Positions 18,283 to 18,326 of a DNA stretch of 37,265 bases are shown here, in pieces (the first letter of the stretch is position 1; each line of letters opens with the position of its first letter). The notes beneath the pieces are model-generated. The model was not told the DNA's origin, searched no databases, and worked only from the letters and a program-made list of their open reading frames with translations. The position numbers were made by a program, and so were the translations under genes. This DNA is from Pseudomonas phage Cline: sequence record PQ571160.1. One strand, written 5' to 3'.

Positions 18283-18326
18283 GGCACATTGTGCCTATTG
18301 CGCATTAGGCACAATGTGCCTAATCT
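18283..18326 (+). promoter_or_regulatory. Promoter of the anti-CRISPR island (TTGCGC, 17-bp spacer, TAATCT), overlapped by two palindromic operator half-sites.
   Basis: GGCACATTGTGCCTA (18283..18297) and its exact reverse complement TAGGCACAATGTGCC (18306..18320) flank and fill the -35/spacer. -10 TAATCT at 18321..18326. SD AAGGAGAG at 18361..18368. Confidence 0.6.

Follow-up and report, generated by a model that had tools for sequence, protein, structure and literature searches.

Known Aca1 operators in the promoter region of an acrIF2-acrIE4-aca1 anti-CRISPR operon of a D3112-like Pseudomonas aeruginosa Mu-like phage

The closest described system is the acrIF1-aca1 operon of phage JBD30, for which binding of Aca1 to two inverted repeats and the accompanying repression have been established by crystal structure, ITC, and an eGFP reporter (Liu et al., 2021, JBC; PMC8633003). 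The 21-bp upstream repeat IR1 (5'-AAGCGGCACACTGTGCCTATT-3') is bound by Aca1 with a Kd of 53 nM and the 21-bp downstream repeat IR2 (5'-ATTAGGCACAATGTGCCTAAT-3') with a Kd of 74 nM, and a 19-bp IR2 DNA with 5' overhangs has been co-crystallised with the protein (PDB 7VJM) (PMC8633003). Helix alpha-3 of Aca1 reads the GGCAC half-site via R44, V45, R47, Y48, and R59, backbone contacts are made by R22, S31, Q32, R33, S42, and Y49, and both binding and reporter repression are lost in the variants R44A, R47A, and R59A (PMC8633003). According to Stanley et al. (2019, Cell 178:1452; PMC6754177), as that work is cited in PMC8633003, repression proceeds solely through IR2, IR1 titrates Aca1 off IR2, and acr promoters that escape repression are transcribed strongly and constitutively, to the detriment of the phage. 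Competition by IR1 for Aca1 fine-tunes the response (PMC8633003; PMC13551039), repression by Aca1 is described in PMC9410906 and PMC13551039 as well, and the published model has a burst of expression on entry that is followed by shut-off (PMC8633003, legend to Fig. 7). The promoter-overlapping motif is located ~10 nt upstream of the predicted transcription start site (TSS) (PMC13551039, NAR 2026). Aca1 also binds a hairpin of ~20 nt in the 5' UTR (Kd about 61 nM), for which no translational effect was detected; the published RNA motif consists of a 3-bp lower stem, at most two unpaired bases, and a 3-bp upper stem, and ends ~20 nt before the start codon (PMC13551039).

A second described system is the acrIF8-aca2 operon of the Pectobacterium phage ZF40 (Birkholz 2019; PMC6765145). 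This acr operon likewise ends with the gene of an HTH autorepressor and has two inverted repeats near its promoter, to which a 5' UTR RNA-binding layer was subsequently added. Aca2 belongs to an unrelated family (DUF1870 fold), has another mode of dimerisation, recognizes another operator sequence, and leaves its DNA unbent.

Here, we compare these systems with a locus in a stretch of 37,265 bp (the window), which is the complete genome of a D3112-like (Casadabanvirus) Mu-like phage of Pseudomonas aeruginosa and aligns over its full length with Casadabanvirus genomes. The 1.5 kb around the operators share 99.4% identity with phage Nox and 97.3% with D3112 (orf29-32), and this region matches 131 phage records, i.e., 130 Pseudomonas phages and one 'Bacteriophage sp.'. 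Two palindromes are found in a 112-bp gap that separates a Mu G-like gene from the acrIF2-acrIE4-aca1 operon, with all genes on the plus strand. The Mu G-like virion morphogenesis gene (17794..18261; Pfam Phage_tail_S PF05069, E 2e-25) borders the acr locus on its upstream side and is syntenic with D3112 orf29 and JBD30 gp34. Downstream of the gap follow acrIF2 of the D3112 gp30 type (18374..18664; PDB 5YHR/6B47/5UZ9, E 4e-58; Pfam AcrF2, E 6.5e-60), which is preceded by the ribosome binding site AAGGAG at 18361-18366, acrIE4 of the D3112 gp31 type (18670..18828; matching the N-terminal half of AcrIE4-F7, PDB 7VZM, E 5e-19; Pfam PF25703, E 5.6e-40), and, as the last gene of the operon, the HTH repressor gene aca1 (18815..19039; PDB 7C0G/7FA3/7VJM, E 1e-43). 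The downstream boundary is a Mu I-like protease/scaffold gene (19259..20365; Pfam Mu-like_Pro, E 3e-102). The acr locus is inserted at the same place, between the Mu G-like and Mu I-like genes, in all eight annotated Casadabanvirus records that were checked (JBD30, DMS3, JBD5, JBD26, JBD88a, H70, JBD93, and LESphi4). The terminator scan found no intrinsic terminator on the plus strand between aca1 and the protease gene. Unrepressed acr transcription reportedly disturbs the late genes downstream, with which the absence of a terminator at this place is compatible.

The two sites at 18283-18297 (GGCACATTGTGCCTA) and 18306-18320 (TAGGCACAATGTGCC) are exact reverse complements of each other, and on direct reading of the window all strings and coordinates given in the first-pass annotation of this DNA proved exact. 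The same annotation had described each site as near-palindromic; the palindromy is real, but the wording is too weak, since both sites are built around a perfect 6+1+6 palindrome, GGCACA-N-TGTGCC. A repeat search returned a perfect 10+1+10 palindrome at 18304-18324 (ATTAGGCACA-A-TGTGCCTAAT) and an 82% palindrome around the upstream site (18278-18300). The upstream and downstream sites are also direct repeats of each other (14/15 matches, 25 bp spacing), and their mutual reverse complementarity arises because a single palindromic operator is present in two copies, with T and A as the respective centre bases. Of the exact 13-mer pattern GGCACANTGTGCC, the 37,265 bp contain just these two copies, and 100 dinucleotide-preserving shuffles contained none; the operator pair is not a product of chance. 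A scan of the phage genome found no other site with one mismatch or less to the operator pattern. Positions 25809 and 33124, which appear when up to two mismatches are allowed, were considered as extra operators and rejected, as the total at this level equals chance (4 found vs. 3.0 expected).

Comparison with JBD30 assigns both palindromes. The downstream operator, IR2 (18304..18324, no strand assigned; core 18308-18320), is identical in 21 of 21 positions to the JBD30 IR2 that was used for ITC, and the Aca1-bound strand given for the crystal structure, AGGCACAATGTGCCTAA, lies within it. The upstream operator, IR1 (18279..18299, no strand assigned; AAGCGGCACATTGTGCCTATT; core palindrome 18283-18295), matches its JBD30 counterpart in 20 of 21 positions, the sole difference lying at its centre (T here, C in JBD30). 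The JBD30 locus resembles the one studied here in its G/I slot and in the order IR1, -35, IR2, -10, and UTR hairpin, but differs in its cargo (acrIF1 there, acrIF2 plus acrIE4 here), the centre of IR1 (C there, T here), the sixth base of the -35 hexamer (A there, C here), and position 18328 (A there, G here).

The regulator is conserved along with its sites. The window-encoded Aca1 is identical to the crystallised protein (PDB 7C0G/7FA3/7VJM) in 69 of 72 aligned residues without gaps (E 1e-43), and all eleven published DNA-contact residues, R22, S31, Q32, R33, S42, R44, V45, R47, Y48, Y49, and R59 in JBD30 numbering, are kept (alignment offset +5). Its gene starts with a GTG codon and overlaps the end of acrIE4 by 14 nt (18815-18828). 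The N-terminus reads VLKPDAS... here vs. MRFPGVKTPDAS... in JBD30, and the proteins comprise 74 and 79 aa, respectively, a difference that suggests a junction of cargo exchange inside the first codons of aca1. Since the HTH protein is Aca1, the cargo is AcrIF2/AcrIE4, and the operators match those of JBD30, the earlier proposal of Aca-type autorepression by the downstream HTH protein is supported. We are highly confident that 18279-18326 is the promoter-operator of the acrIF2-acrIE4-aca1 operon of this D3112-like P. aeruginosa Mu-like phage, with IR2 as the repressing site and IR1 as a decoy. The sequence identities, the genomic context, and the conservation come from the present analysis. That Aca1 binds and represses, that the two sites differ in their roles, and that the promoter is strong is taken from published experiments on the nearly identical promoter of JBD30. 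The operators are thus already characterised Aca1 sites of an anti-CRISPR promoter, and mechanistically they are already known and add nothing new.

The same promoter segment was found in 118 phage records (117 Pseudomonas phages and one 'Bacteriophage sp.'), and the exact double operator in 13 IMG/VR contigs. In 22 of the 23 fetched loci with both operators, Aca1 is encoded 301-1085 nt further downstream, with at least eight different cargo sets in between, and one locus with both operators, L011, has no Aca1 HTH motif within the 2.6 kb scanned. Outside these phages, exact GGCACANTGTGCC pairs at 23-36 bp start to start are present in eight unrelated bacterial contigs (L024-L031), with carriers that include Deltaproteobacteria, Polyangiaceae, Rhodoferax, Planctomycetota, Modestobacter, and Acetobacter; by a rough estimate, chance would account for ~0.04 such pairs in the entire collection. 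No Aca1 homologue was found near any of the eight pairs (best tblastn E 0.29), and as homologous loci they were rejected for this reason. Presumably, they are operators of other regulators. Similar sites can therefore be used by other proteins, which lends some substance to the idea that the palindromes of the phage, if not fortuitous, serve the phage c repressor, a Ner-like protein, or a host factor. This idea is nevertheless so improbable as to be almost negligible, given the shuffle result and the lack of further near-matching sites in the phage genome, the identity of IR2 to the DNA that was titrated and co-crystallised with Aca1 (PMC8633003), the Aca1 gene downstream of the operator pair in 22 of the 23 fetched loci, and the loss of the operators in a relative with a changed recognition helix (phage BUCT566, below).

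Between and beside the operators, the first-pass annotation had read a promoter from TTGCGC at 18298..18303 (putative -35) and TAATCT at 18321..18326 (putative -10), both on the plus strand and separated by a 17-bp spacer, and these features are as it gave them. It had also stated that the first 15-mer overlaps the -35 hexamer, which is not the case: the 15-mer adjoins the hexamer, and only the 21-bp IR1 covers its first two bases. That the downstream palindrome fills the spacer is right, and IR2 extends beyond it into four bases of the -10. Each hexamer matches the sigma-70 consensus in three of six positions, TAATAT being found instead of TAATCT in some relatives. A consensus scan (TTGACA-N16-18-TATAAT, with nine or more of the 12 positions matching) called no sigma-70 promoter at 18298-18326 (0 sites), as TTGCGC/TAATCT scores 6/12. 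Because the hexamers are poor matches and the scan is blank, the strength of the promoter cannot be read from its sequence, and both its function as a promoter and the description of a very strong one rest on the published experiments with the JBD30 homologue. The -35 hexamer here is one base further from the consensus than TTGCGA of JBD30, and the strength may therefore differ from that of the JBD30 promoter. From the published distance of ~10 nt between motif and TSS, transcription would start near 18333.

An alignment of 22 fetched loci, which represent 12 distinct haplotypes with cargo from acrIF1 or acrIE3 alone to acrIE1-acrIF3-acrIF5, delimits a conserved cassette. In the upstream flank (18257-18271) all 15 columns are variable, but at the left edge of the cassette (18272..18282, plus strand; TTCGGACAAGC) only one of 11 is. 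The 21 columns of IR1 include a single variable one, its centre base at 18289, and those of IR2 none (0/21). The -35 hexamer varies at two of six positions (4 and 6) with TTG invariant, LESphi4 for instance having TTGTGA, the -10 hexamer at one of six, the UTR hairpin (18335-18354) at two of 20, and the rest of the UTR (18355-18373) at 13 of 19. The compared phages are closely related, so the invariance of the operator arms is weak as independent evidence, supportive rather than decisive, and for the same reason a test for covariation is impossible.

Individual relatives carry informative variants. The orf30-orf31-aca1 operon of D3112, shared by its relatives Nox, JD024, and MP29, has the same cargo and promoter as the window with point differences only, for example TTGCGT vs. 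TTGCGC in the -35 hexamer, and the older D3112 annotation lacks aca1. In phage H70 (KM233689.1, L019 1322-1375), IR2 has one mismatch (TACGCACA), and a 9-bp insertion separates IR1 from the -35 hexamer, with TTGCGG-17 bp-TAATCT kept. An insertion that displaces IR1 and leaves this spacing intact supports, together with the literature, the proposed hexamers and fits an IR1 without a strict positional role. Phage BUCT566 (NC_074664.1, L022 1440-2055) serves as a natural control: it shares acrIF2, the -10, and the 5'-UTR hairpin with the window and encodes a homologous regulator of 72 aa, but its genomic context is not Mu-like and the recognition helix of its regulator is LSWPGFRNYLRD vs. LSDRVMRYYLSE here. 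In its promoter neither GGCACANTGTGCC operator, nor any inverted repeat, was found. With the helix different and both operators absent, regulator and operator change together. The RNA motif is retained in BUCT566 although the DNA operator is swapped.

The first-pass annotation had spoken of a double operator, and there are indeed two Aca1 sites. Their equivalence did not hold, as only IR2 represses and IR1 titrates (PMC8633003). IR1 and IR2 could in principle form a cooperative unit in which two Aca1 dimers are jointly needed for repression, as they share the same core sequence, have similar affinities in vitro (Kd 53 vs. 74 nM; PMC8633003), and are both strongly conserved. We regard this arrangement as very unlikely: repression is assigned to IR2 and the drawing away of Aca1 to IR1 (PMC8633003, citing Stanley 2019), the additional upstream motif is present in only 86 of 211 acr-aca1 operons (~40%) and missing in ~60% (PMC13551039), a 9-bp insertion that shifts the phase of IR1 against IR2 is tolerated in H70, and the 25 bp from centre to centre correspond to ~2.4 helical turns, so that the dimers do not share one face of the DNA.

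With IR2 as the repressing operator and IR1 as its decoy, the following course of regulation is proposed for the window, in which the timing of expression is inferred from the published model. On infection, host sigma-70 RNA polymerase would fire from TTGCGC-17 bp-TAATCT, and the anti-CRISPRs and Aca1 would be made together. As Aca1 accumulates, a dimer would occupy IR2 (18304-18324), with one recognition helix for each GGCAC half-site and the bound DNA bent by about 42 degrees. IR2 covers the whole spacer and part of the -10, so bound Aca1 would be expected to exclude the polymerase and turn the operon off. IR1 (18279-18299), just upstream of the -35, would bind Aca1 with similar affinity and not repress, and its competition would set the threshold of repression. 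The 5'-UTR hairpin at 18335-18354 may add a third Aca1 site at the RNA level.

This conserved 5'-UTR hairpin (18335..18354, plus strand) has the centroid fold GCC-A-GCC / ACAAC / GGC-GA-GGC, which fits the published Aca1 RNA motif, though its z-score of -0.78 is not significant and covariation is absent among the close relatives. The stretch 18332-18355 is identical to the JBD30 UTR, and the hairpin is common to all types of acr cargo that were compared. An Rfam scan of 18000-19300 returned nothing beyond sub-threshold miRNA noise.

The operators themselves can also be folded as RNA. The segment 18270-18340 forms a hairpin of 15-17 bp (-29.3 kcal/mol, z = -4.4) that was matched by none of 200 shuffles, and this stability would speak for a 38-bp block that acts in G-gene read-through transcripts, where the IR1:IR2 hairpin would terminate, insulate, or stabilise the late message. 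However, any two identical palindromes give such a hairpin, and the fold is for this reason no independent evidence. No U-tract follows the hairpin (TAATCTAGCG) and the terminator scan of the plus strand is blank, which speaks against an intrinsic terminator at the operators; the stem junction is unconserved, with 16-18 of 19 positions complementary across haplotypes and without compensatory changes, and the conservation is already explained by binding at the DNA level. A role of the block as RNA is thus highly improbable. The repeat search had paired two arms of 19 nt each (18283-18301 and 18302-18320, 95% complementary), and a 38-bp palindrome as one unit was rejected, as it is a by-product of the two palindrome copies. 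There is also a slight chance, which we consider small indeed, that the IR1:IR2 pair works as RNA in addition to its role as DNA, with the hairpin in late G-gene read-through transcripts presenting GGCACA as a duplex. Binding of Aca1 to this hairpin as well, should it occur, would link the anti-CRISPR regulator to the expression of late structural genes, by insulation, stability, or titration.

The acrIF2-acrIE4-aca1 module, with IR2 repressing and IR1 as a decoy, is the paradigm of the control of phage counter-defence genes, in which immediate firing on entry would neutralise CRISPR-Cas and the product of the last gene would then shut the operon off, because continued transcription damages the phage. 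Recognition of the module in the window allows a correct annotation of acrIF2-acrIE4-aca1 and its operators, which has little practical value. In the search for new acr cargo, the conserved cassette at 18272-18355 offers a good anchor, and the natural variants (the TTGCGC -35, the H70 insertion, and the swap of helix and operator in BUCT566) are test cases for promoter strength and Aca1 specificity.

The ends of the window deserve a separate remark. The window is circularly permuted, bases 1-72 being identical to the last 72 bp of the right end of phage JBD93, and its final bases (37220-37265) directly precede, in JBD93, the stretch that matches bases 1-72. A fragment of host origin follows at ~73-285, from a gene for a type II/IV secretion or pilus ATPase (Pfam T2SSE, E 5e-25), and homology to the phage left end begins at about 286. 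This arrangement is consistent with a packaged host flank or with an assembly that joined both ends.
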